A DNA stretch of 64,000 nt from an uncultured Gammaproteobacteria bacterium. Lineage in GTDB: Bacteria; Patescibacteriota; Microgenomatia; CAZETR01; Amesbacteraceae. Every line of letters starts with the position of its first letter. The first letter of the stretch is position 1. The DNA lies in NCBI GenBank assembly GCA_964358085.1, contig CAYHNU010000001.1:11220-75219 (forward strand), read 5' to 3'. The position numbers and the translations under genes are program-made. A model generated the notes under the pieces. It saw only the letters and a list, made by a program, of their open reading frames with translations, made no database searches and was not told the DNA's origin. Positions 4,271-52,064 of the stretch are shown here, piece after piece.

Positions 4271-4300
4271 TTGATATTAAGCTCACGGACCTCGTATAAT
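4271..4300 (+). promoter_or_regulatory. Candidate sigma70-like promoter (TTGATA - 18 bp - TATAAT) in the divergent gap, driving the long plus-strand operon
   Basis: ttgata at 4271-4276 and tataat at 4295-4300, with an 18-bp spacer. ATG of the downstream gene at 4310. Confidence 0.3.
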
Positions 4301-4309
4301 CAAGTCTAC

Positions 4310-5860
4310 ATGCGCCGTTTACTGATTCTGGCCCTGGTCATCGGATCACTCACGCGTTTACTATGGCTCACTCGTTACCCGGTTGGATTTACTCCGGATG
4401 AAGCCGCTTTTGGCTACAACGCTTATTCTCTTCTGCTCACCGGCCGTGATGAATGGGGAGTCCCGTGGTGGCAATTGTTTTTTACCAACCTCCGTTCCTT
4501 TGGGGATTACAAACTCCCCCTTTACACTTTCTTGGCTATTCCTTCCGTTAAAATTTTCGGTTTGACTGAATTTGCTGTCCGTTTGCCCAACGCGGTCTTT
4601 GGCATTCTGGCCATAGGCGCCGTTTATCTGCTGGCCAATAAACTTTTTCCCCGCTCCGGTTCCATCGCCGCCCTCCTTCTGGCCATCTCTCCCTGGCATG
4701 TCCAGCTTTCCCGGGGGGCTTTCGAAGCCAATCTGGCTACCTTTCTCTTGCCTATGGGGATTTACCTGTTTCTAGAGAACAAGACCCTCTTTTCCACCCT
4801 ATTCTTTACCGCTGCCGCCTATTCCTATCATTCAGCCAGGCTAATTTTACCCTTCATTTTGGTCTTTATCTTTGTCAACTTCCGCAACAAATTCAAACCT
4901 CTCCTGCTTATTCCCCTTATAGTTTCACTATGGGGATTAAGTTCGGCCCGGGTGGCCGACGTGAGCATTTTCAGCCCCACTGATAACTGGTTGGGAGTGG
5001 CCACCCGCCGTTTTGAGGCCCGGGCTCTGGGTCTTCCGGACCAGATTGCCCGCGTTTTTTCCAACAAGCTGGTTTATTCCCTCTCCACTTTTTCTCAAAA
5101 TTATATTTCTTACTTTTCCCCCAATTTCCTTTTTACCTCTGGAGCTGGTGAGCCCTTTTACGGCATGATGCCGGGCAGGGGAGTGCTTTACTTAATTGAA
5201 CTGCCAATTTTGGTTTTGGCTCTGCTTTACTTTATCCGCAAACCCTCCCGATCAGTTTTCCTGTTACTAATACTCATAGCCCTGGCTCCTATCCCCGCCG
5301 CTCTGGCCAAAGGTCCGGGAGCCGCCGCCAACCGCGCCGTAATTATGCTTCCCTGGTTAATCATTCTTCTTTCCACCGCCATCGTCCGCCTCCCCCGCCA
5401 GTGGCTGACTCTCGTGATCGGCGCCTATATTACCAGCTTCGTTTTCTTTGGAGAGGATTATTTATACCACTCACCCTATCTTGCCGCTCCCTCCATGTCC
5501 TACGGCTGGCGGGATTTAATGCCGCGGCTTCAGGCCTTTACTGACCGTTTCCCCGACGTGCGTTTCAGCAGATCGCTCTCCGAGCCGCACATTTTCGTGG
5601 CCTTTTACACCCGCTTTGATCCCCGGGAGTATCAAAAAGCTTCTGCTTCTTGGCCTCGCAACGTTAAGTTTCTGGACCAATTCGACGGCTACTATTTAGG
5701 CAAATACCGGTTCGGAGTTATTCATCCCGCCGATCCGGTAACCATTCCTACTTTGTACATCGGCAAACCCGAAGATTTTTCGCCGGATTTCCCCGAATAT
5801 TTCCACATTAATTACCCGTCTTCCCGTCCAGCTATCATAGTTGCTCAGAAGCTTCCATGA
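4310..5860 (+). CDS. GT39/GT83-family (PMT/ArnT-like) glycosyltransferase, paralog 2
   Basis: 'PDEAAFGYNAYSLLLTGRDEWG', 'LSRGAFEANLATFLL', C-terminal 'EPHIFVAFYTRFDPREYQ'. Multi-TM. ATG at 4310 (TTG alternative at 4271). Confidence 0.7.
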   Translation: MRRLLILALVIGSLTRLLWLTRYPVGFTPDEAAFGYNAYSLLLTGRDEWGVPWWQLFFTNLRSFGDYKLPLYTFLAIPSVKIFGLTEFAVRLPNAVFGILAIGAVYLLANKLFPRSGSIAALLLAISPWHVQLSRGAFEANLATFLLPMGIYLFLENKTLFSTLFFTAAAYSYHSARLILPFILVFIFVNFRNKFKPLLLIPLIVSLWGLSSARVADVSIFSPTDNWLGVATRRFEARALGLPDQIARVFSNKLVYSLSTFSQNYISYFSPNFLFTSGAGEPFYGMMPGRGVLYLIELPILVLALLYFIRKPSRSVFLLLILIALAPIPAALAKGPGAAANRAVIMLPWLIILLSTAIVRLPRQWLTLVIGAYITSFVFFGEDYLYHSPYLAAPSMSYGWRDLMPRLQAFTDRFPDVRFSRSLSEPHIFVAFYTRFDPREYQKASASWPRNVKFLDQFDGYYLGKYRFGVIHPADPVTIPTLYIGKPEDFSPDFPEYFHINYPSSRPAIIVAQKLP

Positions 5861-7407
5861 AAAAAATCCTCTTACTGCTTCTCATCCCCACATTTTCTTT
5901 GATGTTGCGTCCCGGTATTTTTACGATGCACGATTTCCACGTCTTCCGCCAGTTTGAATTTGGCAAATGCGTTGCCGCCAAAACTTTTCCTTGCCGCTGG
6001 GCGCCGGATGCGGGGATGGGTTACGGCGAGCCGGTATTTAATTTCTACGGTCAGTTTCCTTACTGGATTGGCCAGATATTTCACGCCTTCGGTTTACAAA
6101 CAATTGATTCTGTCAAAGCCAATTTTATTTTGACAATAATAGTTTCAGCCGTGGCCATGTTTTACTTGGGCAAAAAATACTGGGGAAATCTAGGCGGGGT
6201 AGTAGCGGCTCTTTTTTATGTTTACGCTCCTTACCGGGCAGTGGACGTCTGGGTTCGCGGTTCTCTCAACGAAGCATATGCCCTGGCCTTATTTCCTTTG
6301 ATTTTTCTCTCGTTGGATAATTTCCTTGACGATCACCAACCCCGGCATCTCTGGTGGTTAGTTTTATTTGCTTCCGCTCTACTCATAACCCACAACATAT
6401 CCGCACTCATGATTGCCCCGTTTTTGGCTATATGGGTTTTCAAAAAATCTCCCGTGCCTTTCTCTCGCCTCATCGCCGCCGGAGCTGCCGTCTTTCTTTT
6501 AAGCGCTTTTTATTTGCTGCCCGTTATTTTTGAAAGTCACCTGGTTACTTTAAACCGCACCACCACCGACTATTATTCTTACCAGCTCCATTGGACCACT
6601 CTCAAGCAGCTCTTTATCTCCCGCTTTTGGGGTTATGGCGGCTCCGTTTGGGGCCCTAACGACACCATGAGTTTCTCCGTCGGTTACCTACAGTGGATCG
6701 TGCCGGTTCTAGTAGGTATATATTTTTTAATTAGGAAATTCAGGCATTCATTAGGTCAATTAGAAATTAGGTCAATTAGAAATTTTGCAGTATTCATTTC
6801 ATCAGCCTTCTTCGCTATTTTTCTCACTCACGGCAAGTCGGAATTTATCTGGAAACTTTTCCCTCCTTTAGCTTACGTCCAGTTCCCCTGGCGTTTCCTA
6901 GCCGTGGCAACCTTCTTTCTGGCCCTCTCTTCCGGCGCCATCGCGCAAGTGTTTCCCAAAAAATTATCAATCATCTTAATCAGCTTAGTTATCTTAATTA
7001 ACTTCTCCTTCTTCCGTCCCGATATTTGGCGTAACATCACGGACCGTGAACAATTTTCAGGAGCCTTGTGGGACGAGCAACGTTCTTCGGCTCTAAATGA
7101 TTTTTGGCCCCGCACAGCTCCCCAGTTACCCCGTTTTTTCGCCCCATCCCAACCTCAGGTTCTTCTTACTACAGATACTTACCAAAAAATCCAATACCCC
7201 ATTGTTTATTTCCCCGGCTGGAAATCGGAAGTTGAACTTTTCCCCTTCGGTCCGCTGGGTTTAATTACCGCCCGAGTCCCGCTAGACACGCAAATTACCC
7301 TGAAATTTACCGATACGCCTGTCCGGATCATCGGCAACATTACTAGTCTGGTCGCTGTGCTATGTCTCATCTTAAGTGGCTATTACTTATTGTCGCGGCG
7401 GGTTTAA
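5857..7407 (+). CDS. Large polytopic membrane protein of unknown function (possible GT-C glycosyltransferase)
   Basis: 516 aa, about 12 hydrophobic segments. N-terminal 'HDFHVFRQFEFGKCVAAKTFPCRWAPDAGMGYGEPVFNFYG'. ATGA overlap with the upstream stop. Contains a perfect 16-bp x2 tandem repeat at 6751-6782. Confidence 0.45.
   Translation: MKKILLLLLIPTFSLMLRPGIFTMHDFHVFRQFEFGKCVAAKTFPCRWAPDAGMGYGEPVFNFYGQFPYWIGQIFHAFGLQTIDSVKANFILTIIVSAVAMFYLGKKYWGNLGGVVAALFYVYAPYRAVDVWVRGSLNEAYALALFPLIFLSLDNFLDDHQPRHLWWLVLFASALLITHNISALMIAPFLAIWVFKKSPVPFSRLIAAGAAVFLLSAFYLLPVIFESHLVTLNRTTTDYYSYQLHWTTLKQLFISRFWGYGGSVWGPNDTMSFSVGYLQWIVPVLVGIYFLIRKFRHSLGQLEIRSIRNFAVFISSAFFAIFLTHGKSEFIWKLFPPLAYVQFPWRFLAVATFFLALSSGAIAQVFPKKLSIILISLVILINFSFFRPDIWRNITDREQFSGALWDEQRSSALNDFWPRTAPQLPRFFAPSQPQVLLTTDTYQKIQYPIVYFPGWKSEVELFPFGPLGLITARVPLDTQITLKFTDTPVRIIGNITSLVAVLCLILSGYYLLSRRV
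6751..6782. repeat. Perfect 16-bp x2 tandem duplication ttaggtcaattagaaa inside the CDS 5857..7407 (contains the ttagaaattag core)
   Basis: Direct read. Encodes SLGQLEIRSIRNF. Confidence 0.8.
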
Positions 7408-8864
7408 CTCTAAGGCTCGCTGCCATTAATTTTTTACCGCCTAGTCTCAACTGGGACGAAGTGTCACTGGGTTACAACGCTTATTCACTTCTCAAAACGG
7501 GCCGGGATGAATGGGGGACAATCCTGCCCACCATTATTCGCGCTTATGGAGACTACAAGTTACCTATTTACGTTTATTTAGCTGTTACTTCGCCGTTCTT
7601 TATCCGTTTACCTTCAATTATTTTCGGCACTCTGCTTATCATAGTTACATATCTATTAGGTCGACGGCTGGCTTCTCCGTTCGTTGGTCTGACTTCAGCT
7701 CTGCTGATAGCCATTTCCCCCTGGACCTGGTGGATATCCCGCATCGCTCTGGAGGCCAACGTGGGAGCCCTGCTTATCGCCATAGGCATCTACTGTCTAC
7801 TTGCCCGCAAACTTAATCTGGGAATACTTTTTCTGGGTCTATCCGTTTGGGCTTATAATTCCGCCCGCGTCTTCTCTCCGCTTTTCTTGACCGGCTACTG
7901 GTTAATCAATCGTCCCAAACTAACTCCTATCCACTATTCTCTAATTTCTATTTTCTTTATTCCTATGATTTTCCAACTCTTATCCTCCTCCGGCCAGGCT
8001 CGCTTAAACTGGCTGACCATTCTTGATTCTGGGGCCATCACCCAGATAAACCAGCTGCAATCCCGTCCCGGCGGCCGACTGGTGTACAACAAAGCCACTT
8101 ATTTCCTCTATCGCTTCGGCCAAAACTATATTTCCTATCTCTCTCCCAATTTCCTGTTTCTTAAAGGCGGCAATCATTATCAATTCAGTGTCCAAAACTA
8201 TGGCTTGCTATATTTAATTTGTCTGCCATTTTTTTATATTGGGATTTGGTATTTATTTAGAAATTATAAATTAGAAAGTAGAAATTCGTTGCTGTTGTGG
8301 TTACTGCTGGCGCCGGTCGCTGGCAGCCTTACCCGCGATGCACCCCACGTCCTGCGTGCCATCCCTTTGCTTCCTCTCCCCATGATCCTCACCGCCATCG
8401 GCCTGGACCGCTTCGGCCGCAATGTTAAGGTTCTCTTCTTCGTCGTCTTACTACTATCAACTATGAACTATTTATTCGTAACTAAAAGTTATCGCAATAA
8501 CTTTTCGGATGCCTGGCAATACGGTTATTCTCAAGTAATTCAATTTATTAAACCGCTGTATTCCCAATACGATCAAATCGTTTTTACCAAGAAATATGGC
8601 GAACCGCACGAATTCGTGGCTTACTTCTGGCCCTGGGATCCCGCCGATTTTTCCCAAAATAAGTCTTGGGACTACCACGCTAATTGGTATTGGGTGAACA
8701 GTCTGGACAAGATTAAGTTCGTCAACGATTGGGAGATTAGCACCATGGCGTTTAAACCAAACACTTTAGTTATTTCCAGTCCTGAAAGTGAAATTTCCGG
8801 CCGCGAGATAAAAAGGATTAATTTTCTCAATGGCCAGCCAGCCTTTATTATTTATGAAATCTAA
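7362..8864 (+). CDS. GT39/GT83-family (PMT/ArnT-like) glycosyltransferase, paralog 3
   Basis: 'WDEVSLGYNAYSLLKTGRDEWG', 'ISRIALEANVGALLI', C-terminal 'EPHEFVAYFWPWDPADFSQ'. ATG confirmed at 7362. Confidence 0.7.
   Translation: MSHLKWLLLIVAAGLTLRLAAINFLPPSLNWDEVSLGYNAYSLLKTGRDEWGTILPTIIRAYGDYKLPIYVYLAVTSPFFIRLPSIIFGTLLIIVTYLLGRRLASPFVGLTSALLIAISPWTWWISRIALEANVGALLIAIGIYCLLARKLNLGILFLGLSVWAYNSARVFSPLFLTGYWLINRPKLTPIHYSLISIFFIPMIFQLLSSSGQARLNWLTILDSGAITQINQLQSRPGGRLVYNKATYFLYRFGQNYISYLSPNFLFLKGGNHYQFSVQNYGLLYLICLPFFYIGIWYLFRNYKLESRNSLLLWLLLAPVAGSLTRDAPHVLRAIPLLPLPMILTAIGLDRFGRNVKVLFFVVLLLSTMNYLFVTKSYRNNFSDAWQYGYSQVIQFIKPLYSQYDQIVFTKKYGEPHEFVAYFWPWDPADFSQNKSWDYHANWYWVNSLDKIKFVNDWEISTMAFKPNTLVISSPESEISGREIKRINFLNGQPAFIIYEI
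8256..8287. repeat. AT-rich degenerate repeat tttagaaattataaattagaaagtagaaatt inside PMT-like paralog 3 (encodes FRNYKLESRN)
   Basis: Contains the ttagaaa/agaaatt cores seen at 6751, 13742 and 42941. Confidence 0.55.
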
Positions 8865-10413
8865 AATTCTGCTCATATTTATTGTTTTACTCGGGTCTGG
8901 ATTGAGATTGTTTCACTTAGGCTCTCGCCCATTGGGTTTCACTTGGGACGAAGCCGCACTCGGCTACAACGCCTACTCGCTTCTCAAAACCGGCCGTGAC
9001 GAATACGGAAAAATTTTGCCCGTGGTTCTCAAATCTTTCGGCGACTATAAACCCGGAGTTTATGCTTACCTGGCTGTTCCCAGCATCGCCACTCTCGGCC
9101 TGTCTGAATTTGCCACCCGCCTTCCCTCGGCCATTTTTGGCACCTTGCTCGTTATCGTTGTTTACCTTCTTACTCGAAACGCATTTACTGCTCTGCTTTT
9201 AGCCATCAATCCCTGGTCACTCTATTTCTCCCGTGGAGCGTGGGAAGCCAACATCGCTTTGGTTTTCACCACCCTGGGTGCCCTTTTGTTTATCAAACGC
9301 CGGTATTTAACATCGGCCCTCTTCTTTGGCCTGACATTTCTCACTTACCAAGGAGCTAAAATGTTCACCCCCTTGCTTCTGGTTTCCCTTTTTTTGATTT
9401 ACCGTCCCAATATTAAATTATTAATCAAACCCCTAATTTTCCTGTTTCTCCTGTTTCTCCCCATCCTCCTGGGTCTTGGCACCCAATCCGGCCGTTTGAA
9501 AGTCTTTAGTGTCTTCAGCTACACCCGCCGTCCTGACACCATTGTGGAAATAAAACGCCAGGACAAAAATAACCCTTTCCTTTTCACTCTCTTCGATTCA
9601 GAAATCATTGATCAGGGCAGGGGAGTGCTGCAAAGATATTTAAATCACCTCTCGCCTTATTTCCTGTTCTTCGCCGGTGATTGGCAAAACCTGCGCCATT
9701 CTGTTCCGTACTACGGTTACTTCCACCTCCCCGAAATACTGACCATTCTCATTGGCCTCGTCGTCTTACTACGAACCAATAACCAACTAACTAAGCTTCT
9801 GATAGCTTGGTTGCTTTTGGCTGCTTTGCCTTCGACTCTGTCACGCGACCTGGTCTCCGGCGTTCGCTCATTGCCCCTTCTCGTTCCGCTAATTATCATT
9901 TCCGGAATCGGCCTTGCCCAACTATTTCGTCATCGTTTCCTCTTATACTCTTACACTCTTATACTCTTGTTTTTCTTTGTTTATTATCTCGACTTATTTT
10001 ATGTTCACTCTCCCAATTTCACTGCCGCCGATATGCTTTATCCATACAAACCGGCCTTGACCCTGATTAAACAACATCTGGGGGAATATCAGCGAGTCAT
10101 TATCTCCGATAAGCTCGGCCAGCCATATATTTTTACCCTTTTTTATCTGCGCATTGACCCACTGGAGTACCAGCGTCAAAGCCAGTTGACAGCCAATCCC
10201 CAGGGGGACGTGGGCCATGTTGACCGCTTTGACCAATTTGTTTTTCGCCCGCTTTTTTTGCCCGAGGATAGGTATCTACGTTCCACAATTTTGATAGGGG
10301 ACAGATACGAGCTACCTGACCCAGATCTACCATCTATTCCCAACCTAGTCATGCTGGGGGACATTAAATATCCCAATGGCGCCCCGGGTCTGAAAGTGAT
10401 CGGTCTCAAGTGA
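8854..10413 (+). CDS. GT39/GT83-family (PMT/ArnT-like) glycosyltransferase, paralog 4
   Basis: 'WDEAALGYNAYSLLKTGRDEYG', 'FSRGAWEANIALVF', C-terminal 'QPYIFTLFYLRIDPLEYQ'. ATG at 8854 (earlier ATG at 8830 possible). Confidence 0.7.
   Translation: MKSKILLIFIVLLGSGLRLFHLGSRPLGFTWDEAALGYNAYSLLKTGRDEYGKILPVVLKSFGDYKPGVYAYLAVPSIATLGLSEFATRLPSAIFGTLLVIVVYLLTRNAFTALLLAINPWSLYFSRGAWEANIALVFTTLGALLFIKRRYLTSALFFGLTFLTYQGAKMFTPLLLVSLFLIYRPNIKLLIKPLIFLFLLFLPILLGLGTQSGRLKVFSVFSYTRRPDTIVEIKRQDKNNPFLFTLFDSEIIDQGRGVLQRYLNHLSPYFLFFAGDWQNLRHSVPYYGYFHLPEILTILIGLVVLLRTNNQLTKLLIAWLLLAALPSTLSRDLVSGVRSLPLLVPLIIISGIGLAQLFRHRFLLYSYTLILLFFFVYYLDLFYVHSPNFTAADMLYPYKPALTLIKQHLGEYQRVIISDKLGQPYIFTLFYLRIDPLEYQRQSQLTANPQGDVGHVDRFDQFVFRPLFLPEDRYLRSTILIGDRYELPDPDLPSIPNLVMLGDIKYPNGAPGLKVIGLK
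9441..9460. repeat. Perfect 10-bp x2 tandem duplication cctgtttctc in PMT-like paralog 4
   Basis: Direct read. Encodes FLFLLFL. Confidence 0.6.
9941..9969. repeat. Intragenic 8-bp tandem repeat (tcttaYac)x3.5 in PMT-like paralog 4
   Basis: tcttatac, tcttacac, tcttatac, tcttg. Encodes LYSYTLILL. Confidence 0.6.
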
Positions 10414-12005
10414 AAAATTTTTTGCTGATTCTCATTCTCGTCCTGGCATCCGTTTTACGGCTTTATAAACTTTCCTCCTATCCCGCCGGCCTGAACGCCG
10501 ACGAAGCGGCTCTGGGCTACAACGCCTACTCACTCCTTCTCACCGGAAAGGATGAGCATGGTCATCCTTGGCCGGTCAATCTGGAATCTTTTGGCGACTT
10601 CAAACCTGCCGGTTACGCGTATCTGCTTATTCCCTTTATCAAAGTTTTCGGCCTGACGGAATTCGCCGTCCGTCTCCCCTCGGCCGTCTTTGGGATATTG
10701 GGAGTGTTATTCATTTATTTATTAACTAAGGAATTAATTAACAAGGACTGTGGATTGATTGCAGCTCTTATGCTTACAATTTCGCCGTGGCACCTGCACT
10801 TCTCCCGCGGCGGTTGGGAAGTCAATGTAGCCACCACTCTCATACTTATCGGCGCCTGGCTTTTTCTTAAAAAACGCTTTGCCCTTTGCACTTTGCCTTT
10901 TGCCCTTTCTATGTACACCTACCAGTCTGCCCGCCTCATCGTTCCCCTCATGGGATTGGGTCTATTTTTTCTCTACCGCCCCAAACGAATTTTTATGGCT
11001 TTTGTTTTGGGCTTCTTACTCCTAATCCCTCTAACCTATAACCTAGTCACTACCGACGCCGCCTCCCGTTTGTCCGGCGTGGGGCTTCTGGCCGATGAGG
11101 GGCCTCTCAACCGGGCCAAGGAATTGCGCGGCCAGCATCCCGCTTGGAGCTCTCCTTTGTCCAGAATTTTACACAACCGCCCGGTTTTATATTCCATCCA
11201 ATTTTTGAAAAACTACACCGACCATTTTTTCGGCGACTTTCTTTTTGTTAACGGCGACGTTATACCCCGTAACCGCGTCCCCGAAACCGGCCTGCTCTAT
11301 TTCACCGACTTTATTTTCTTAGGGTTAGGAGCGGTTTATCTACTACGAACTATGAACCATGAACCAAGAACTAAATTGGTTTGGTTATGGCTTGCCATCG
11401 CCCCAATTGCTGCAGCTCTCACTTTCCAAACCCCCCACGCCCTCCGCGCCCAAAACATGGTCATCCCACTGACAATTATTTTGTCATTTGGCATTTATTC
11501 ATTTTTTATTGATTTAAAATTAAAAATTAAAAATTTAAAATTGTTCCGTTTAGTTATTGGAGGTTTTGTGATAGTTTATCTTTGGCAGGTGGCGCGCTAC
11601 TTGCACGAATATTACGTCCATTATCCCCAAACTTATCCATACGCCTGGGAATACGGCTTTAAAGAACTGGTGGCTTACGTGGGATCGGTTCAGGACAAAT
11701 ATGAAAAGATTTTAGTCACCGACAAATATGATCAGCCATACATCATTTTTCTCTTTTATTCCAAATACCCGCCCCAAAACTTCCAGGGCCGCCATACGCT
11801 GACTTTCCGCGACAAATACAACTTTTCCACTGTTCGTGACTACGACAAATTTCATTTTTCCGCCACCCCCTGGACAAAAGTCAGCGACATCCATTCGTCC
11901 CTCATAGTAGCCGCCCCGGAAGATATTCCCGACGTGGGTGTTAATATAGTTAAAACCATTAATTTCCCAAATGACCAACCAGCGTTTAAAATAATTAGTA
12001 ATTAA
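10410..12005 (+). CDS. GT39/GT83-family (PMT/ArnT-like) glycosyltransferase, paralog 5
   Basis: 'ADEAALGYNAYSLLLTGKDEHG', 'FSRGGWEVNVATTLI', C-terminal 'QPYIIFLFYSKYPPQNFQ'. GTG start overlapping the upstream TGA (GTGA). Confidence 0.7.
   Translation: MKNFLLILILVLASVLRLYKLSSYPAGLNADEAALGYNAYSLLLTGKDEHGHPWPVNLESFGDFKPAGYAYLLIPFIKVFGLTEFAVRLPSAVFGILGVLFIYLLTKELINKDCGLIAALMLTISPWHLHFSRGGWEVNVATTLILIGAWLFLKKRFALCTLPFALSMYTYQSARLIVPLMGLGLFFLYRPKRIFMAFVLGFLLLIPLTYNLVTTDAASRLSGVGLLADEGPLNRAKELRGQHPAWSSPLSRILHNRPVLYSIQFLKNYTDHFFGDFLFVNGDVIPRNRVPETGLLYFTDFIFLGLGAVYLLRTMNHEPRTKLVWLWLAIAPIAAALTFQTPHALRAQNMVIPLTIILSFGIYSFFIDLKLKIKNLKLFRLVIGGFVIVYLWQVARYLHEYYVHYPQTYPYAWEYGFKELVAYVGSVQDKYEKILVTDKYDQPYIIFLFYSKYPPQNFQGRHTLTFRDKYNFSTVRDYDKFHFSATPWTKVSDIHSSLIVAAPEDIPDVGVNIVKTINFPNDQPAFKIISN
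10877..10910. repeat. Intragenic 7-bp tandem repeat (ctttgcN)x4-5 in PMT-like paralog 5
   Basis: ctttgcc, ctttgca, ctttgcc, ttttgcc, ctttct. Encodes FALCTLPFALS. Confidence 0.6.
11344..11376. repeat. Motif ctacgaactatgaaccatgaaccaagaact (encodes LRTMNHEPRT) within PMT-like paralog 5
   Basis: 24 of 27 nt identical to 60661-60687. Related copy at 13756-13785. Confidence 0.7.
11516..11543. repeat. 28-bp heptad element aaaatta-aaaatta-aaaattt-aaaattg, in frame within the PMT-like gene (encodes LKIKNLKL)
   Basis: Differs from the 42937-42964 copy only at the first base of each heptad. Same reading frame. Confidence 0.8.
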
Positions 12006-12006
12006 C

Positions 12007-12843
12007 ATGAAGGACCAAAAGAAATTAGCCATATTTGAAGGGAAAAAGATTCGCCGGCATTGGAATGGTGAACAAGAAAAATGGTATTTCTCTGTCGTGG
12101 ATGTAGTATCCGCTTTAACAGATAGCATCGATCCAAGAAACTATTGGAAGGTTCTTAAAAACAGGTTAAAGAATGAAGGAAGCGAGGTGGTTACAAAGTG
12201 TAACCAACTGAAAATGCAGGCTGCAGACGACAAATATTATCTTACCGATGTAGCCGATACAGAAGTAATGTTTCGTATTATTCAGTCTATTCCTTCTCCA
12301 AACGCCGAACCGTTTAAACTCTGGTTAGCCAGGGTTGGCTATGAGCGGATCGAGGAGTCTCAAGATCCAGAACTGGCCATTAACCGGGCTTTAAAAGCCT
12401 ACCTGAGAAAGGGTTATAGCAGAGATTGGATTAACCAACGTTTAAAAAGCATTGAAATTCGAAAAGCCCTGACGGATGAATGGGAAAACAGAGGAGTTAA
12501 GGCTGGCGACGAGTTTGCCATTCTGACTGATGATATTACCTTTGCTTGGGCGGGGATAACTACCAAGCGGTATAAAAATTACAAAGGGCTTAAGAAGGAA
12601 AACCTGCGAGACAATATGACTAATTTGGAATTGGTCTTGGATATGCTGGCCGAAACGGCTACCACCGAAATTTCCCAAAAGCGTAAATCGCAGACATTTA
12701 TGGGTAATCGGCGAGTTGCGAAAGAGGGTGGAGGCATAGCCGGCAATGCCAGAAAACAGATTGAGGCCAAGACTGGCAGGAGAATTGTGAGTAAATACAA
12801 GTTTATCCCTGCAAGTGCTCGAAAAACATTAAAAAACGTATGA
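12007..12843 (+). CDS. DinD-like / BRO-N domain protein (DNA-damage-inducible protein D family)
   Basis: 278 aa. N-terminal 'FEGKKIRRHWNGEQEKWYFSVVDVVSALTDS...NYWKVLKNRL' matches the BRO-N/DinD pattern. Central 'FAILTDDITFAWAGITTKRYKNYKGLKKENL...LAETATTE' matches my recollection of E. coli DinD. Starts 1 bp after the upstream stop, and its stop overlaps the next start (ATGA). Confidence 0.55.
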   Translation: MKDQKKLAIFEGKKIRRHWNGEQEKWYFSVVDVVSALTDSIDPRNYWKVLKNRLKNEGSEVVTKCNQLKMQAADDKYYLTDVADTEVMFRIIQSIPSPNAEPFKLWLARVGYERIEESQDPELAINRALKAYLRKGYSRDWINQRLKSIEIRKALTDEWENRGVKAGDEFAILTDDITFAWAGITTKRYKNYKGLKKENLRDNMTNLELVLDMLAETATTEISQKRKSQTFMGNRRVAKEGGGIAGNARKQIEAKTGRRIVSKYKFIPASARKTLKNV

Positions 12844-13619
12844 AAAAAATAAAACTCTCCGTAGTTCTGGCCACTCACAACGAGGAGGCCAATATTGTGA
12901 GATGTCTTGAGTCGGTCAAAAACATCGCCGACGAGATAGTTATCGCTGACGAACAATCTTCGGATAAAACAGTGAAGATTGCCAAAAAATTTGCAGCCAA
13001 AGTTATCTCTGTCCCACATAACGATAACTTTCATATCACTAAAAATATCGCTATTGCGTCAGCAACAGGGGACTGGATTCTCCAACTGGATGCCGACGAA
13101 GTCGTCTCCCCCGAACTGGCCCGGGAAATCCAATCCCACCTGAAAGGTGGCCGGAAGGACTCCTTTCAGGTGAACGGCTATTGGATGAACAGAAAAAATT
13201 GGTTTTTAAATCGGTTCTTAACCAAAGGCGGTCAATACCCGGATCCCACTCTCCGCTTCTACCGCCGGGGACTAGGACACCTTCCGGCCGCAAATGTCCA
13301 CGAACAAGCTACCGTCAATGGACCGGTCGGCCGCCTCAAGCACGATTTACTTCACTATCACCACACCACCTTTTCTAAATACATGGATGGATTCAACCGC
13401 TATTCTTCTTTCGCCGCTTCTCAAATGCAAGCTCGTCATGAACCCCTTAATCTACTTAATGCACTTAATCACTTAATCCCTCTCCCCCTATTTACTTTTC
13501 TGAATATCTATTTCCGTCATCTAGGTATGGTTGATGGATATTCCGGATTTGTTTTTGCCCTCTTTTCCGGCCTCACCCATGCCGTTGCCTACATTAAATA
13601 CTGGCAAAGGTCATTATGA
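12840..13619 (+). CDS. GT2 glycosyltransferase, polyprenyl-phosphate sugar synthase-like (ArnC/GtrB-like, C-terminal TM helices)
   Basis: 'KLSVVLATHNEEANIVRCLESV', 'QLDADE' DxD-type motif, C-terminal hydrophobic pair 'LIPLPLFTFLNIYF...FVFALFSGLTHAVAYI'. Confidence 0.6.
   Translation: MKKIKLSVVLATHNEEANIVRCLESVKNIADEIVIADEQSSDKTVKIAKKFAAKVISVPHNDNFHITKNIAIASATGDWILQLDADEVVSPELAREIQSHLKGGRKDSFQVNGYWMNRKNWFLNRFLTKGGQYPDPTLRFYRRGLGHLPAANVHEQATVNGPVGRLKHDLLHYHHTTFSKYMDGFNRYSSFAASQMQARHEPLNLLNALNHLIPLPLFTFLNIYFRHLGMVDGYSGFVFALFSGLTHAVAYIKYWQRSL
13446..13477. repeat. Intragenic tandem repeat (cttaatNNN)x4 in the GT2 gene (encodes LNLLNALNHL)
   Basis: cttaat recurs at 13446, 13455, 13464 and 13472. 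Confidence 0.6.
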
Positions 13620-14605
13620 TCAAAGTCGGTTTTATTACATCTCCCCTGCACGACGCCAATGCTGCCCGCGGCGTCGGCTCCTACACCCGCCGCCTCCTAG
13701 AAAGACTCAAAGTTCAAAGTTCAAGGTTCAATATTGAGATTTTAGAAATTAAAAATGACCATGAACTACAAACTATGAACTATGAACTCGTCCACTACCC
13801 ATACTTCGACTTATTTCGGCATACCTTGCCAATTTTTAATAAATCCAAAATTGTAGTCACCCTTCACGATGTGATACCGTTGGAATTTCCTGATCACTAC
13901 CCCCCCGGTCTCCGCGGCAGGCTTAATCTGCAGTTGCAAAAATTGGCCCTGGCCAACGTAGAACGTGTCATTACCGTTTCCTATGCTTCAGTACAAGCAA
14001 TACGAAAGTATCTGCTTGTACCTCACGCTAAACTCAAACTGGTTTACGAAGCCGCCGACCCCATGTTTAAAAAGATTTCTAAACCCAAAAACAAATATCA
14101 TCTGCCCAAAAAATTCGTTCTCTACGTCGGAGATGTGAATTGGAATAAAAATATACCCAATTTAGTTAAAGCTTGTGAACAAATAAATTACCCATTGGTA
14201 ATAGTGGGTAAACAAGCAACTGAAGTAGAAAAACTGGACCTAAACCACGCTGAACTGCGGCATTTACAAGGAGTAGATTGGTCGGCCGTTATCCGCTCGG
14301 GTTTTGTGGCAGACGAAGATTTGGTACATATCTACAATTTGGCCACCGTTTACTGCCAGCCGTCCTTATCCGAAGGCTTTGGCCTGCCTGTCGTGGAAGC
14401 CCTGGCCTGCGGCACCCCTGTAGCCTGCAGCAATACTTCATCCTTGCCGGAAATAGCGGAGGATAACGCCACATATTTCAATCCCTATGACGTCGATGAT
14501 ATGTCCCAAGCTATAATTAACGCTAAGCCTCCACAAAGCAAGCCAATGTTTTCATGGGAGGAAACTGCCAAATTGACTCTGATGGTTTATCGGGAAATAT
14601 TATGA
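13616..14605 (+). CDS. GT4 (GT-B fold) glycosyltransferase
   Basis: C-terminal 'QPSLSEGFGLPVVEALACGTPVACSNTSSLPEIAED' is the typical GT4 E-x7-E region. ATGA overlap at both ends. N-terminal region carries repeat insertions (13708-13785). Confidence 0.65.
   Translation: MIKVGFITSPLHDANAARGVGSYTRRLLERLKVQSSRFNIEILEIKNDHELQTMNYELVHYPYFDLFRHTLPIFNKSKIVVTLHDVIPLEFPDHYPPGLRGRLNLQLQKLALANVERVITVSYASVQAIRKYLLVPHAKLKLVYEAADPMFKKISKPKNKYHLPKKFVLYVGDVNWNKNIPNLVKACEQINYPLVIVGKQATEVEKLDLNHAELRHLQGVDWSAVIRSGFVADEDLVHIYNLATVYCQPSLSEGFGLPVVEALACGTPVACSNTSSLPEIAEDNATYFNPYDVDDMSQAIINAKPPQSKPMFSWEETAKLTLMVYREIL
13708..13785. repeat. Composite repeat block in the GT4 N-terminus: (caaagtt)x3, then tta gaa att aaa aat core, then cat gaa cta caa act atg aac tat gaa ctc
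   Basis: Direct read. Encodes KVQSSRFNIEILEIKNDHELQTMNYEL. Confidence 0.7.
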
Positions 14606-15714
14606 AGTTTACAGCAATTCTAAAATATTTTGTCCTCTGGCAGGCGGCAATAATCATTATGGCCATTGCCGCCCAATATTCTTCCCTGCCTTTGCGGGAG
14701 ACGTATTTAGGCAGCGGTACCCAAGGGTATATGGAGAAACCTTGGTTCTACTCCCGGGAGAACTTCGACGGAATGCACTACACGTACATCGCCCGCCGGG
14801 GCTATGGCTACTCCCAACAGGCCTTCTTCCCCCTTTATCCGGCCATCATGCGCCGCATCATGACTTTGCCGATTCTCAACAACGCTGTTCTTGCTGGGAT
14901 CCTAGTCTCGGTAGTATCTTTCTTAGCCGGACTATACCTTTTTACCAAGCTCGCTCTATTAGATTACTCTCCTACAGTGATCAAGTGGACTGTTTTAGCA
15001 CTTTTGTTTTTTCCCACCAGTTTCTTCTTCACCTCCATTTATACCGAAGGTCTGTTCTTTTTCCTGACCATCGCCGCCTTTTACTCCGCCCGCACCCGCC
15101 GCTGGTTGCTGGCAGGCATATTTGGGGCCTTGGCCAGCTACACCCGCTTCATCGGCATTTTTCTCCTTCCCGCACTTCTTATCGAATGGTGGCAGCAGGG
15201 CCGCCGCTTTAGGCACTTCTTGCCTCTTCTTTTGATTCCACTTGGCCTGGGAATTTACATGAATTATCTAAATAAGACAGTAGGGGATCCGTTGGCCTTT
15301 TTCCACGTCCAGGTCAATTTTGCCCAGTTAAGAAGCGAGAAACTGATTCTCCTCTACCAAGTCTTCTGGCGTTACGTAAAAATGCTCTTTACCGTTAACC
15401 GGTCTGACCCCCTGTATTTGACCATTATCCTGGAACTTGTCACCGGAGTAGCCTTTCTAGCCACCACTGTCTACTCTTTCATCAAGCACCGTCTATCCTA
15501 CGCCGTCTTCAACTTCCTAGCCTACCTCACTCCCACTCTTACCGGTAGCTTCACATCTTTGCCCCGTTACGTCCTCCTCTGTTTCCCGTCGTTCTTGCTT
15601 ATCGGCGAATTATCGTCCCGCTCTCCCTTGGCTCGCAAGATCATTTTCGGCACCTTCGCCCTGGCCTTCATTATTTTTCTCTCCCTCTTCGCCCGGGGAT
15701 ATTGGGTATCATAA
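14602..15714 (+). CDS. GT-C membrane mannosyltransferase candidate, PIG-V (GT76)-like
   Basis: Multi-TM. 'FDGMHYTYIARRGY' resembles the conserved WDxxHYLxIAxxGY motif of the PIG-V/Mannosyl_trans2 family. ATG at 14602 overlaps the upstream TGA. Confidence 0.45.
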   Translation: MKFTAILKYFVLWQAAIIIMAIAAQYSSLPLRETYLGSGTQGYMEKPWFYSRENFDGMHYTYIARRGYGYSQQAFFPLYPAIMRRIMTLPILNNAVLAGILVSVVSFLAGLYLFTKLALLDYSPTVIKWTVLALLFFPTSFFFTSIYTEGLFFFLTIAAFYSARTRRWLLAGIFGALASYTRFIGIFLLPALLIEWWQQGRRFRHFLPLLLIPLGLGIYMNYLNKTVGDPLAFFHVQVNFAQLRSEKLILLYQVFWRYVKMLFTVNRSDPLYLTIILELVTGVAFLATTVYSFIKHRLSYAVFNFLAYLTPTLTGSFTSLPRYVLLCFPSFLLIGELSSRSPLARKIIFGTFALAFIIFLSLFARGYWVS

Positions 15715-16458
15715 ATGAATACAGCTGATTTATCGGTGGTCATGCCGGTATATAAACAAGAAAATAAAGTGGTGCTGTATCTTAAAAATTTGGATAAAAT
15801 TTTGGCAGAATTAAACATAAACTATGAAATTATTTGTGTAGTTGATGGTTTTTTAGATAATACTTTTAAAAATGCAAAAAAATACATTAATAAAAGAATT
15901 AAAGTAATTGGTTATGAGAAAAACCAGGGTAAAGGTAACGCGGTTAGATTTGGAATGTCACACGCGAAAGGAAAGATAATAGGTTTTGTAGACGGAGGAT
16001 TTGACCTTAAATATACATCGATTCCCTTAGCTTTGAAACACATGAAGTGGTATGACGCGGATATTATTATTGGGTCCAAACGCCATCCAGCATCCAAAGT
16101 AGCATATCCCTGGCAAAGGCGAATTTTGTCCTGGGGATATCAGATAGGAGTGAGGTTGTTATTTGGAATTAATATCCGGGATTCACAAGTAGGCATTAAG
16201 TTTTTTAAACGCGAAGTGATAAAAAAAATAATGCCTAAACTTTTGATAAAGGAGTTTGCTTTTGATATCGAAATGTTAGCGGTTGCCAACAGAATGGGCT
16301 TTTCCCGGATTTATGAATTTCCTATTGAATTGGAATTAGAATTTGGCACATCTTCAATTGCATCAATTGGTTTTTTTAAAACTGTTTGGAACATGCTGTG
16401 GGACACCTTGGCCGTCTTTTACCGTCTGGAAATCCGGCACTACTACGACGATGTGTAA
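15715..16458 (+). CDS. GT2 glycosyltransferase (short, DPM1/GtrB-like)
   Basis: 'LSVVMPVYKQENKV', 'VVDGFLDNT', 'GKGNAVRFGMSHAKG', 'FVDGGFD'. 247 aa soluble GT-A. Confidence 0.6.
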   Translation: MNTADLSVVMPVYKQENKVVLYLKNLDKILAELNINYEIICVVDGFLDNTFKNAKKYINKRIKVIGYEKNQGKGNAVRFGMSHAKGKIIGFVDGGFDLKYTSIPLALKHMKWYDADIIIGSKRHPASKVAYPWQRRILSWGYQIGVRLLFGINIRDSQVGIKFFKREVIKKIMPKLLIKEFAFDIEMLAVANRMGFSRIYEFPIELELEFGTSSIASIGFFKTVWNMLWDTLAVFYRLEIRHYYDDV

Positions 16459-18208
16459 TTTTTTAGTAGCGGCCATACTATTTTTTATTTTGGTTCCCGG
16501 CGTATATGCTTCGGAGGAATTTATAAATATTGTCAATCCGGTGCGGACTTCTACTTATAACTCCAATCCAGCAGCCAGCCTGCGGGCCCAGTACAGCATA
16601 ATTTCCCAATACCGGTTAGCAGCAACTTGGTTATTGACCTACGATGTATTAGGCCGACCGGAAATGGTCACCGAATTTAAAAAATTCTCGCCCAATCAAG
16701 AACTCGGTATTTTCTTAGAGATTGCTCCTGGATTTGCTAAAGCTGCGGGAGTTGAGTATCACAATACCGGTTCTTGGCATTTTGCCAACGCAGTATTTTT
16801 ATCCGGTTACACACAAGAAGAAAGAATCAAGTTCATGGATACGGTATTTGCCAAGTTTAAAGAACAATTTGGTTACTACCCAGTTTCCGTCGGGTCCTGG
16901 TGGACGGATAGTTATTCCCTAAGTTACATGAGACAAAAATACGGTATTATTGCCAATCTGGGGGTTGCCGACCAGTACTCGACTGATAATTATCAGGTGT
17001 GGGGGACTTATTGGTCCACCCCCTATTATCCCAGCAAACTTCACGCCGGTATTCCGGCGGCCAGCCCGGACAATAAAATAGGAGTAGTCACTCTCCAATG
17101 GGCTCCCCGCGAGCCTCGGCGGGGGTATTACAGCAGTCTATATAGTACCCAAGATTATTTCACCACTCCAAAGCTTGATGTCAATTATTTCTCCCAGCTG
17201 ATCGATATATTTTCTCAAGTCACAGTTGGTTTAGAAAGCGATTTCACCCCCGATGTTTATGGGGGTGAATATGCCAAACAAATGCAGATTGTGACTCAAA
17301 AAAGCGCAACCAAGGTGACCATGAAAAACTTTGCCGAATGGTACACAGATAAATTTCCCGGGATATCACCAGAACAAAAGATCGAATCGGACGGTATGGT
17401 CTGGTATCAATCACCTTTTTACAGGTTGGGCATAGACAAAACAAACAGCAAAATCATTGATTTCAGAATTTATCCCGCGGATTATAGAGAGCCTTATTAT
17501 TTATGGCCAAATAGAGAAAAAGATTTGCGCATAAATATTCCCTCTTTGATTGATTCCATCCAAAACCCTTCAGAAATTTGGAATATCACAGACCTAAATA
17601 TCAAGACTATGCCAAAATATTTTGAATCCGCAAATAAACCTCCCCAAAGATTTTTCAAATCAAACTTTATTTTGGTAAAGAAATCAGGCAATACTTGGCG
17701 CGTAGAGATAAGTAACAACTTTAAAGACGGAGAGATATTTAGCGATTGGAGTCTGGAAACGAAACACTTATTCAAATCCTCTAAAAATCTCATCAAAACA
17801 ATGATTTCTTTTGACTGGAATAAATTCAAAAAAGAAAAATACTGGATTTCTCCGGAGGAACTAATAGCTTTGGAAAAATTTAGATTAATGCCAAAAGGCA
17901 AGGTATTAGTTTACGACCACGAGTGTCTGCAATGTGAATATTTCGGAAAATATCGCCCGGCAGCATTTGCCAATTCTCGGAAATACGTAAGCAGATTTTC
18001 CCAAAAAACAATAATTTATAATTACTCTGTGTTTAAAGCCAAAGATAGACCCACAGCTAAAAAGCAATTACAAAAAACTGGGGCTAAATACGTTTACTTA
18101 GTTAAGTATAATCAATATCAGGAATCGTTACCATTTTCACCGGGGGATTTGGGAGTTGAGAAGATATTCGAAAATGCCAATGTACAAATATGGATCAAAA
18201 AGATATAA
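16451..18208 (+). CDS. Hypothetical exported protein (signal peptide), unknown function, embedded in glycan locus
   Basis: ATG at 16451 gives 'MCNFLVAAILFFILVPGVYASEEF', a signal-peptide-like N-terminus. About 585 aa, Tyr/Trp-rich soluble domain. I did not recognise a family. Confidence 0.45.
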   Translation: MCNFLVAAILFFILVPGVYASEEFINIVNPVRTSTYNSNPAASLRAQYSIISQYRLAATWLLTYDVLGRPEMVTEFKKFSPNQELGIFLEIAPGFAKAAGVEYHNTGSWHFANAVFLSGYTQEERIKFMDTVFAKFKEQFGYYPVSVGSWWTDSYSLSYMRQKYGIIANLGVADQYSTDNYQVWGTYWSTPYYPSKLHAGIPAASPDNKIGVVTLQWAPREPRRGYYSSLYSTQDYFTTPKLDVNYFSQLIDIFSQVTVGLESDFTPDVYGGEYAKQMQIVTQKSATKVTMKNFAEWYTDKFPGISPEQKIESDGMVWYQSPFYRLGIDKTNSKIIDFRIYPADYREPYYLWPNREKDLRINIPSLIDSIQNPSEIWNITDLNIKTMPKYFESANKPPQRFFKSNFILVKKSGNTWRVEISNNFKDGEIFSDWSLETKHLFKSSKNLIKTMISFDWNKFKKEKYWISPEELIALEKFRLMPKGKVLVYDHECLQCEYFGKYRPAAFANSRKYVSRFSQKTIIYNYSVFKAKDRPTAKKQLQKTGAKYVYLVKYNQYQESLPFSPGDLGVEKIFENANVQIWIKKI

Positions 18209-19212
18209 ATTTTCCCGGAGTTAGCATCATTATTCCGGTTTTAAATAACGAACGTACTATCAAAAAGTGCTTGGAAGGTATTACGCTTCAAGATTATCCT
18301 AAAAACAAAGTCGAGGTCCTGATTCTTGATGGGGGAAGCACTGACAAAACCATAGCAATCGCAAAATCTTTTAGAAGCATAAACCTCCACATTGTAAAGG
18401 GTGGTTATCGCAACAATATGGAGGCCAGGAGATCTATAGGCTTCCGAAAAGCAAAGTACAATTTAGTATTGGTTTTGGATTCGGACAATTACTTATACAG
18501 TTCAGATAGTCTTCGAAAGTTAGTCAAGCCCATGCTCGGCGAGGATCATCTGATTGGGTCATTCACTCTTCACTACCACTATGATTCCCAATTGCCGTTT
18601 TTTACTAGATATATATCTTTATTTGGCAACCATGATCCCGTTGCCTATTATCTACACAAAGCTGATCGGCAAAAAATTACTCAAAAAACTTGGCCACACA
18701 AAAACCAAATTGTGTCTACAAAACCGGAATGGACTGTCGTCCAATTTAATAAACAAAATTTCCCAACCCTCGGCAGCAACGGGTTTCTCATAAACAAGAA
18801 ATATCTGCGCTTAAAAAATCTTAAACCGGAGAATTTTTTACATACTGATATTCTCTATGATCTTCTCGATAGGGGGTTAAATAAATATGCGGTGGTTGAT
18901 GCTCAAGTTGTTCACGATAGCAGTTCCAGCATTAAACGACATTTAGAAAAAAGGTATGAATATATGCAACTTCACCATATTTCTCTGGCTAAAATAAGGC
19001 GCTATAAAGTCTTCGATTCCAACTCGCCTCAGGATCGTTTCCATCTTACCAAATTTATTTTTTATACCATTACTATTGTCAAGCCTCTCCATGAATCAAT
19101 CGAGGGATTCTTCAAAAAACCCGACCTCGCCTGGTTTATTCACCCCTTTTTGTGCTGGGCATTTTTAATCACTTATTCATTTGCAGTAGTCAATCCTCAC
19201 AAAAAAAGATGA
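18190..19212 (+). CDS. GT2 glycosyltransferase with C-terminal membrane segment
   Basis: 'VSIIIPVLNNERTI', 'LDGGSTDKT', 'LDSDN'. C-terminal hydrophobic 'WFIHPFLCWAFLITYSFAVV'. Confidence 0.6.
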   Translation: MDQKDINFPGVSIIIPVLNNERTIKKCLEGITLQDYPKNKVEVLILDGGSTDKTIAIAKSFRSINLHIVKGGYRNNMEARRSIGFRKAKYNLVLVLDSDNYLYSSDSLRKLVKPMLGEDHLIGSFTLHYHYDSQLPFFTRYISLFGNHDPVAYYLHKADRQKITQKTWPHKNQIVSTKPEWTVVQFNKQNFPTLGSNGFLINKKYLRLKNLKPENFLHTDILYDLLDRGLNKYAVVDAQVVHDSSSSIKRHLEKRYEYMQLHHISLAKIRRYKVFDSNSPQDRFHLTKFIFYTITIVKPLHESIEGFFKKPDLAWFIHPFLCWAFLITYSFAVVNPHKKR

Positions 19213-51630: not shown

Positions 51631-51926
51631 TTGTATTAATGATTATTTTGGTTTTTTTTGATGCGTTTTTTTTGCCCGCTAAAAATCTCTTTTCCAATTT
51701 AATTTTTGTTTTAATCTTAGGGTTGGGAATTTGGAAAATCCATTATTATAAAAATTGGTTCATGTTGTCTTTAGTTTTTATTACCGCAGCAGTTGTCTTT
51801 TATTTGATTGGTAGTGAGTCTGCAAATGAAGTTATTGTCCAGAAGTTTTCGGACTGGACATTGATATCATTATTATTGGGTGCGTTGCGGTTGATCAAAT
51901 TACCAAATGATAAAAATAGGATTTAG
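51627..51926 (+). CDS. Small hypothetical membrane protein
   Basis: 99 aa with 3 hydrophobic segments. ATGA overlap with the upstream stop. Confidence 0.3.
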   Translation: MIVLMIILVFFDAFFLPAKNLFSNLIFVLILGLGIWKIHYYKNWFMLSLVFITAAVVFYLIGSESANEVIVQKFSDWTLISLLLGALRLIKLPNDKNRI

Positions 51927-52064
51927 TTTTTTTTCGTTTTTTTTGGCTTTAACAAGTCTTCTGTTGTGGTTTGGAAAGACGGCTAAAGCTCAATTTTTGA
52001 TAGAGATAGCTTTTGGCGTGATTGCAACATGTTTAGTTAGTTATTTATTTAGATTGACCAGAAA

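Follow-up and report, generated by a model that had tools for sequence, protein, structure and literature searches.

A Bro-N gene of the PDC-S13 family inserted at a gene junction within a bacterial glycosylation cluster

Bro-N is a classic domain of phages and viruses, and the question raised by the locus described here is why a gene whose product carries such a domain should lie flush between two glycosyltransferase genes, how it arrived there, and what its protein might do. The window, by which is meant the whole 64-kb stretch of DNA that was analysed, is part of the 111-kb Hainich groundwater contig Hain_H41_01um_R3_157, from a genome of Patescibacteria; the homologs of its GT2 gene indicate Microgenomates/Amesbacteria. 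Along its entire length it is a glycosylation and methyltransferase cluster, with many GT2 and GT4 genes, sugar-nucleotide enzymes, a flippase and at least five PMT-like paralogs, and it includes a block between 1.7 and 12 kb of seven large ORFs (approximately 400-530 aa), three of which lack a precomputed Pfam match. An earlier note on this DNA, made from the sequence alone, had drawn attention to the Bro-N gene as a precisely fitted stranger in the cluster. The explanation favoured here, to which we would assign a probability of about 0.65, is that it is a horizontally acquired passenger gene without a promoter, translationally coupled to its neighbours, the product of which would act on DNA and not on glycans. 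The elements under discussion are the following.

4310..22578, plus strand: 15 co-directional genes that form the putative host operon of the insert, from gene calls and junctions
10410..12005, plus strand: upstream PMT-like glycosyltransferase, 531 aa (Pfam PMT_2/PMT, E 1.4e-9)
12003..12009, plus strand: upstream junction TAA-C-ATG, with the PMT-like stop at 12003-12005, a single C at 12006 and the inserted-gene ATG at 12007
12007..12843, plus strand: inserted gene, an ATG-initiated ORF of 278 aa with a Bro-N domain and a DdrC/DinD-like helical domain
12055..12330, plus strand: Bro-N domain, aa 17-108, a beta-hairpin and winged-helix-like fold (structural domain approximately aa 1-111)
12367..12774, plus strand: C-terminal helical domain, aa 121-256, homologous to the four-helix bundle of the DdrC C-terminal domain (CTD) and to the C-terminal half of DinD
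12840..12843, plus strand: downstream junction ATGA, in which the GT2 ATG (12840-12842) overlaps the inserted-gene TGA (12841-12843)
12840..13619, plus strand: downstream GT2 glycosyltransferase, 259 aa (Pfam Glycos_transf_2, E 2e-24)

Insertion at the PMT-GT2 junction

It is clear that the gene was gained by insertion into the PMT-GT2 junction in the lineage of the window only, because in three syntenic relatives the PMT gene is followed directly by GT2 and the site is empty (Bro-N gene absent in 3/3).

L092, same sample as the window: PMT 83% and GT2 83% identity; 90-nt structured spacer in which GGAGG precedes the GT2 start
L093, another sample: PMT 81% and GT2 77% identity; PMT and GT2 overlap by 35 nt
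L094, another sample: PMT 74% and GT2 71% identity; PMT and GT2 overlap by 35 nt

The insert spans 12006-12839 and amounts to exactly one ORF, the difference from L092, L093 and L094 being a presence/absence polymorphism at a conserved junction. In alignment, the C-terminus of the PMT-like protein (...NDQPAFKIISN) is intact and collinear with those of the same three insert-free relatives, and the N-terminus of GT2, MKKIKLSVVLATHNEE (starting MKKIKLSVVL…), is identical to that of the insert-free L092. The earlier note had suspected an inserted cargo gene, and the synteny check, with its three empty sites, bears this out; its companion claim, that the gene is unrelated to glycan synthesis, agrees with the fact that the clusters of the three syntenic relatives do without it. 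Acquisition of an accessory gene by a hypervariable surface-glycan cluster is ordinary in itself, and the locus is an unusually clean example of it, in that three relatives keep the empty site and the insert is a single ORF.

A strain from another Hainich well, L005, has the identical Bro-N gene at the same place; the idea that it is a recombinant of an empty-site strain was rejected, as it is not L092-like. The structured 90-nt spacer of L092 was also considered as a remnant or a landing site and was set aside, having no similarity to the inserted gene or to other loci. A search for flanking direct or inverted repeats and target-site duplications at 12006 and 12839 gave none that were convincing, and no tRNA genes that might be integration targets were found in the 64 kb.

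The same junction can be read in the opposite direction, with the gene ancestral between PMT and GT2 and precisely lost in the relatives. The junction is certainly variable, as seen from the 35-nt overlap in L093 and L094 and the structured spacer in L092, but a history of loss calls for independent, precise and in-frame-neutral deletions in several lineages. Moreover, the PMT/GT2 overlap of L093 and L094, with its extended GT2 N-terminus, is incompatible with a former insert, the spacer of L092 is unlike the gene, and the closest homologs are found in other classes and in other contexts. Parsimony strongly favours gain in the lineage of the window over a series of precise losses, and an ancestral position is extremely unlikely.

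Base composition provides weak support for a foreign origin. The earlier note described the gene as visibly richer in AT than its neighbours, and the numbers do run in that direction, with a GC content of 0.425 against 0.459 in each flanking gene and a GC3 of 0.434 against 0.517 and 0.485 (z approximately 2.2 and 1.2, by our own two-proportion estimate). The signal is nonetheless a weak one, in that GC3 within the window ranges from 0.26 to 0.61 and the value for the inserted gene falls in the middle of this range. The inserted gene also has a GC skew of +0.15 and an AT skew of +0.20 while both skews are negative in both flanks, a flip towards purines that a soluble protein rich in Lys, Glu and Arg would give among membrane proteins.

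Junctions and expression within the host run

The inserted gene has neither promoter space nor a Shine-Dalgarno sequence of its own. It begins 1 nt past the PMT-like stop and its TGA overlaps the GT2 ATG, a tight fit that had been described correctly in the earlier note; a Shine-Dalgarno scan of the upstream junction (12003..12009) found none, and the downstream junction (12840..12843) is without the Shine-Dalgarno-like GGAGG seen ahead of GT2 in L092. As a candidate promoter for the inserted gene itself, just a 9/12 match at 11964-11992 came to light, and it was rejected, lying within codons that are conserved in the insert-free relatives.

Such tight junctions are not special to the inserted gene, because overlaps are the norm throughout the 15-gene run from 4310 to 22578, where they occur at 11 of the 14 junctions. 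A clear Shine-Dalgarno match is present in 0 of its 15 genes, the longest match being 4-5 nt, and the combination of genes lacking this signal with overlapping junctions implies that translation proceeds by coupling. Ahead of the run, at 4271-4300, there is a promoter-like site (TTGATA-18-TATAAT, 11/12), a consensus match only, of a kind no more frequent than in shuffled sequences. From the gene arrangement, the inserted gene would be co-transcribed with the glycosylation operon; its translation would occur by termination and reinitiation after the PMT-like gene, and GT2 would then be coupled to it through the ATGA overlap.

Two further checks suggested in the earlier note concerned an SOS box and phage genes elsewhere on the DNA, and neither turned up. 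LexA-type boxes of the E. coli (CTGT-N8-ACAG) or Cheo type (GAAC-N4-GTTC) are absent from the window, although the motif of Patescibacteria may differ, and the 1-nt upstream gap leaves no room for an SOS box. Across the 64 kb there are likewise no phage, integrase, restriction-modification (RM) or other defence genes.

The PDC-S13 family and its genomic contexts

The Bro-N-type N-terminus proposed in the earlier note is confirmed by Pfam (PF02498, aa 17-108, E 1.1e-7), at 32.7 bits against a gathering score of 25.6, and the domain has a fold of the Bro-N/KilA-N/APSES type. In an AlphaFold2 monomer model (pLDDT 84) a floppy linker joins the beta/alpha N-domain (aa 1-111) to a helical C-domain (aa 121-256). 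Over almost its whole length (aa 1-272) the protein matches the PADLOC model PDC-S13 (286 positions; E 3.1e-132, 438 bits), and it also matches PHROG 15286, of unknown function (phrog_15286, E 1.4e-116). No nuclease or recombinase domain was detected by Pfam or among the significant fold matches.

The inserted gene is a stand-alone, horizontally acquired member of a widespread and unusually conserved family, PDC-S13/PHROG 15286. A family search returned more than 8000 matches, with 72-81% identity across many classes of Patescibacteria, the best database match being 81% identical at the amino acid level; in species-representative genomes there are at least 594 loci at 60-77% identity. The family extends over Patescibacteria classes, Bacteroidota, Clostridia, Proteobacteria, Leptospiraceae, Marinimicrobia and others, and at E <= 1e-30 it forms 967 clusters at 50% identity. 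Relative to the closest homologs dN is 0.15 and dS is saturated, from which it follows that the gene is under strong purifying selection and that no recent donor is present in the databases. The degree of conservation is that of housekeeping genes (60-80% across phyla), yet the family is accessory and uncharacterised; searches of the literature and of supplements for PDC-S13 returned none, and no paper testing the family was found. With this locus a catalogued, uncharacterised family gains a member whose host operon is unusual.

DinD and Bro-N proteins were described in the earlier note as typically associated with phages or SOS, and for this family the phage association does not apply: members occur in 4 of 50,697 phage records, all of them short unannotated virome fragments, in 24 of 72,556 plasmids, and in IMG/VR as 174 stretches among 2.9 million contigs. 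These counts bear on the possibility that the gene is a remnant of a prophage or phage-derived element which decayed and left an antirepressor-type BRO protein. The Bro-N domain itself, the existence of a PHROG family, the annotation of some homologs as 'antirepressor' and the IMG/VR matches all point that way. The BRO and antirepressor proteins of phages and baculoviruses, however, have Bro-N fused to Ant, KilAC, ORF6C or T5orf172, whereas the C-domain here resembles DdrC and DinD and has no Pfam model; specifically, neither an Ant nor a KilAC C-terminal domain was found by Pfam in the inserted protein. With the family almost absent from sequenced phages, an insert of exactly one ORF, and no phage, integrase or repeat feature in the 64 kb, a decayed phage is a most improbable source.

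The neighbourhoods of homologs are varied. Among 80 loci surveyed, 119 immediate neighbours match 142 Pfam families, in which DNA methyltransferase, RM and integrase genes are slightly over-represented and housekeeping genes also occur; glycan genes are absent from the recurrent neighbour families. In 58 of 67 loci the gene immediately upstream runs in the same direction as the homolog. Homologs at 78-80% identity, the closest ones, have unrelated surroundings: an island with LexA, RM and Abi genes, a position flanked by ResIII and a methyltransferase, and a stretch of housekeeping genes. Annotated contexts are listed below.

L097: homolog of 80% identity, preceded by LexA, an Eco57I-like RM gene, NYN and Abi_C
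L099 and L100: homolog flanked by ResIII and an N6_N4 methyltransferase (gaps of 12 and 5 nt)
L182: homolog flanked by a PDDEXK gene and a RecQ-like helicase; a LexA-methyltransferase fusion lies upstream
L183: homolog inside a glycolysis operon, between PGK and FBA; the operon also has two 92-aa GIY-YIG ORFs
L030, Hainich Patescibacteria: homolog in the order PMT, PMT, GT2, homolog, PMT, flippase, an unassigned gene, GT2, with 4-nt overlaps on both sides
L018, Hainich Patescibacteria: homolog with a sugar transferase and then two GT4 genes after it

At three loci (L097, L182 and L039) a LexA homolog is found within 6 kb of the family member; a rough estimate puts this above what a single-copy gene would give, and it is suggestive only.

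The PDC set was compiled from genes found inside BREX, DISARM and type I RM systems, and all 145 of its systems are candidates (bioRxiv 10.1101/2024.01.29.577857). The inserted protein resembles PDC-S13 in its full-length HMM match and in that some close homologs, like the founding members, sit inside RM systems (ResIII, gene, methyltransferase); it differs in its host operon, a glycosylation cluster without a defence gene within 64 kb. Location in a defence system is a property of some homologs (e.g. L097, L099, L100 and L182) and not of the window. The earlier note had offered the alternative of an anti-phage accessory exploiting the cell-surface operon; the first part accords with the protein being a catalogued candidate, and as to the second, nothing suggests that the operon is exploited beyond the gene riding on its expression.

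A stronger version of that idea would make the gene a genuine accessory of the glycosylation cluster, either regulating the operon by binding DNA or serving as a defence factor that is selected for in surface loci, glycans being phage receptors. Homologs in L030 and L018 are also found in glycan clusters of Hainich groundwater Patescibacteria, and the inserted gene appears to be translationally interlocked with GT2. Nevertheless, the three closest syntenic clusters work without the gene, and the glycan positions are not homologous, the gene following PMT and preceding GT2 in the window and the reverse in L030. No glycan genes recur as neighbours over the 80 loci, and by a rough estimate two to three of approximately 30 Patescibacteria loci is about what chance would give, as glycan clusters, over 64 kb long here, take up much of such small genomes. 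We regard a functional tie to the cluster as very unlikely.

The variety of host operons raises another explanation, namely that the gene is a selfish, self-inserting cassette comparable to a free-standing homing gene and targeted to gene junctions within operons. The ORF-exact insert, its presence or absence at a conserved junction, the wedging of the family into unrelated operons (RM, glycolysis, glycan), the predominantly co-directional upstream neighbours, the lack of an associated mobility gene and the small GIY-YIG ORFs beside the L183 homolog, in a similar position, are all compatible with such a cassette. Against it, the protein has no nuclease or recombinase domain by Pfam or fold search, and there are no target-site duplications or terminal repeats. 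Near-identical copies in different contexts are also missing, the best match being at 81% with dS saturated, and tight junctions are in any case the norm in this operon. Self-insertion is accordingly judged quite unlikely. On the passenger reading, the position of the gene would reflect the lodging of its family inside operons together with the plasticity of surface-glycan loci, with no functional partnership.

DinD, DdrC and a putative role on DNA

Two characterised proteins are related to the inserted one. DinD of E. coli (b3645) is of similar length (274 aa against 278 aa), itself has Bro-N at the N-terminus (E 1.5e-7) and is homologous over the C-terminal half. In the inserted protein this domain contains K193-G-L-K-K-E-N-L-R-D202-N-M-T-x-x-E208-L, and the two proteins share the motif KGLKK-x3-(L/I)-x-D-x-M-x3-EL. 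BLASTP against DinD gave 26% identity over 186 aa (E 5e-6); comparison of the family profile with the single DinD sequence gave 75%, and profile-profile comparison with a DinD alignment by hhalign gave 92.7% (E 4e-7, 139 columns). The DinD family is likewise unusually conserved and patchy, with 74-84% identity from Enterobacteria to Chlorobiaceae. The differences are equally plain. Identity to the inserted protein is approximately 22-26%, and NCBIfam, the library that NCBI uses to name DinD proteins, returned no family for the inserted protein at E <= 1. The DinD-like core of the earlier note thus stands at the level of a superfamily, on the BLASTP and hhalign results, and not as orthology; by sequence comparison the inserted protein is a distinct family, related to DinD at the superfamily level only. 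The DinD gene is LexA-regulated and monocistronic and has its own promoter, whereas the inserted gene lacks both an intergenic region upstream and a LexA-type box. To our knowledge, the only known activity of DinD is the inhibition and disassembly of post-synaptic RecA filaments.

The strongest relationship, which the earlier note overlooked, is to DdrC of Deinococcus radiodurans (PDB 7QVB, 7UDI, 8U0G), the best-characterised relative of the inserted protein. In a Foldseek search with the model, the top six matches were all DdrC (E 1e-6 to 4e-4, approximately 250 columns), and the next match was at E 0.5. Similarity to the solved DdrC structures is full-length and remote, with TM scores of 0.37-0.52 and 14-15% identity. 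A search of PDB sequences with the single sequence found no match; DdrC was reached by the family profile only, built from 38 representatives (E 5.1e-4, aa 139-254 against 114-223). A DinD profile run against the same PDB sequences did not reach DdrC, so that the link between DinD and DdrC passes through the PDC-S13 family only. Near-invariant residues of the family that align to DdrC are W141, R145, R152, L155, L173, K193, K196, R201, D202, T205, E208 and L209.

DdrC, an asymmetric domain-swapped dimer, binds nicks or double-strand breaks in pairs and in this way compacts or circularises DNA (PMC11347143; PMC9303277). All DNA binding by DdrC depends on R128, R142, R164 and K170 in its CTD, and recognition of lesions depends on its N-terminal domain (NTD), through R14 and R81 (PMC11347143). 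Of these CTD contacts, R128, R164 and K170 align with K153, K190 and K196, which vary little or not at all among close homologs, and R142 aligns with a variable position, D168. The residues of the DdrC NTD cannot be mapped by sequence; the family-invariant R16 and R90 are candidates for a lesion-reading role in the N-domain. DdrC is shorter (231 aa against 278 aa, with approximately 14% identity), and its negatively charged NTD has been described as Dachshund-like (PMC9303277) whereas the N-domain of the inserted protein scores as Pfam Bro-N. DdrC is further reported to be radiation-induced and restricted to Deinococcus, in contrast to a PDC-S13 family of many phyla and variable contexts, and it has been stated to lack homologs outside Deinococcus as well as structural homologues (PMC11347143, PMC9303277). 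The profile and model comparisons point instead to a single superfamily comprising the PDC-S13 family, DinD and DdrC, in which case DdrC would have relatives well outside Deinococcus. No bacteriology paper discussing both DdrC and DinD was found in the searched library, and the link may already stand in InterPro or AFDB. The significance of the widespread PDC-S13 family is that it bridges two DNA-damage-induced proteins of unclear function.

For the promoterless passenger, an action on DNA is proposed because DinD and DdrC, the two characterised relatives, are both DNA or recombination factors that are induced by DNA damage. By analogy with DdrC, the inserted protein would be a dimeric DNA-binding protein, with K153, K190 and K196 of the C-terminal domain holding the duplex and the Bro-N domain reading a feature of that DNA, for example a nick or an end. 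Its cellular role would concern damaged or foreign DNA, as a sentinel for genome maintenance or against phages, and not glycan synthesis. Several observations count against this explanation as a whole: the remoteness of the similarity to DdrC, the non-conserved R142 contact, the inhibition of RecA filaments by DinD, which is a mechanism different from that of DdrC, the weak composition signal, the lack of a recent donor and the glycan contexts of L030 and L018.

A broader proposal, speculative and on balance unlikely, is that DdrC, DinD and PDC-S13 constitute one ancient, horizontally circulating superfamily of dimeric sensors of DNA lesions and ends. The PDC-S13 branch of it would spread as promoterless single-ORF cassettes, translationally coupled at gene junctions of operons (RM, glycolysis, surface-glycan) and serving as sentinels for damaged or invading DNA. 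If the link between the three is true, the nick- and break-sensing of DdrC offers a hypothesis that could be tested directly on DinD and on thousands of PDC-S13 proteins.

States of the PMT|GT2 junction

The junction between the PMT-like and GT2 genes, which in the window holds the inserted gene, is differently built in L092, the closest relative with an empty site, where a unique spacer lies between the two genes.

L092:2410-2499, 90-nt spacer at the PMT|GT2 junction

This spacer has a very stable predicted fold (MFE -39.9 kcal/mol) and ends in GGAGG, ahead of the GT2 start. The junction thus differs among relatives, and three states of the site can be told apart: overlap of the two genes, a structured spacer, and the Bro-N gene. 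When 11150-13960 of the window is compared with L005, which represents a variant strain sampled at a different Hainich well, identity is 100% over about 11700-13000, the inserted gene included, and short patches of 26-40% mismatch lie at 11500-11600, 13300-13400 and 13600-13960. The patches could be hypervariable segments or reflect recombination within the glycosyltransferase genes, and since the L005 contig is of low coverage they may also be an assembly artefact.

Neighbours and domain partners of the family

Homologs of the inserted gene are found in other genomic settings, and in three Patescibacteria loci (L097, L182 and L039) a LexA homolog lies within 6 kb of the family member.

L097:320-967, LexA homolog
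L182:2069-3562, LexA homolog fused to an N6_N4 DNA methyltransferase (497 aa), an unusual architecture
L039:5296-5865, LexA homolog directly 3' of the family member

In L183 (Berkelbacteria) the family member sits in a glycolysis operon, between PGK and FBP aldolase, and two 92-aa GIY-YIG ORFs are likewise placed between genes of this operon.

L183:262-540, GIY-YIG ORF, between TIM and GAPDH
L183:7356-7634, GIY-YIG ORF, between FBA and PfkB

This one housekeeping operon is host to several small invaders, the family member and the GIY-YIG ORFs. The C-domain also occurs with another partner: two proteins annotated as KilA-N domain-containing, on Bacteroides and Planktothrix plasmids (H27, NZ_CP103284.1; H28, NZ_LR882935.1), match the query only over aa 110-225, so the DdrC/DinD-like C-domain is also fused to KilA-N, which replaces Bro-N. 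PADLOC PDC-S04 has the N-domain alone in common with the query. Among the DinD proteins (P0391-P0510) identity stays at 74-84% across a range that reaches from Enterobacteria to Pseudomonas, Limnobacter and MAGs of Chlorobiaceae, and in both the DinD family and that of the inserted gene conservation is unusually high for an accessory gene.

Composition of the glycosylation cluster

The window (1-64000) is a single giant cluster of glycosylation and methyltransferase genes. At least five PMT-like paralogs are present in it; the block at 1.7-12 kb has seven large ORFs, of which three are without a precomputed Pfam match. For three very large ORFs farther along, no Pfam match is on record.

46224-54647, three ORFs of 741, about 1062 and 860 aa

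GC content is about 0.48-0.51 in the left part (1-15.7 kb), drops to 0.30-0.35 at 41-52 kb and then rises again, the 741-aa and about 1062-aa ORFs falling in the lowest-GC stretch of the window (0.31-0.34). GC3 of individual genes spans 0.26 to 0.61, which suggests that the glycosylation cluster is itself of mosaic origin.
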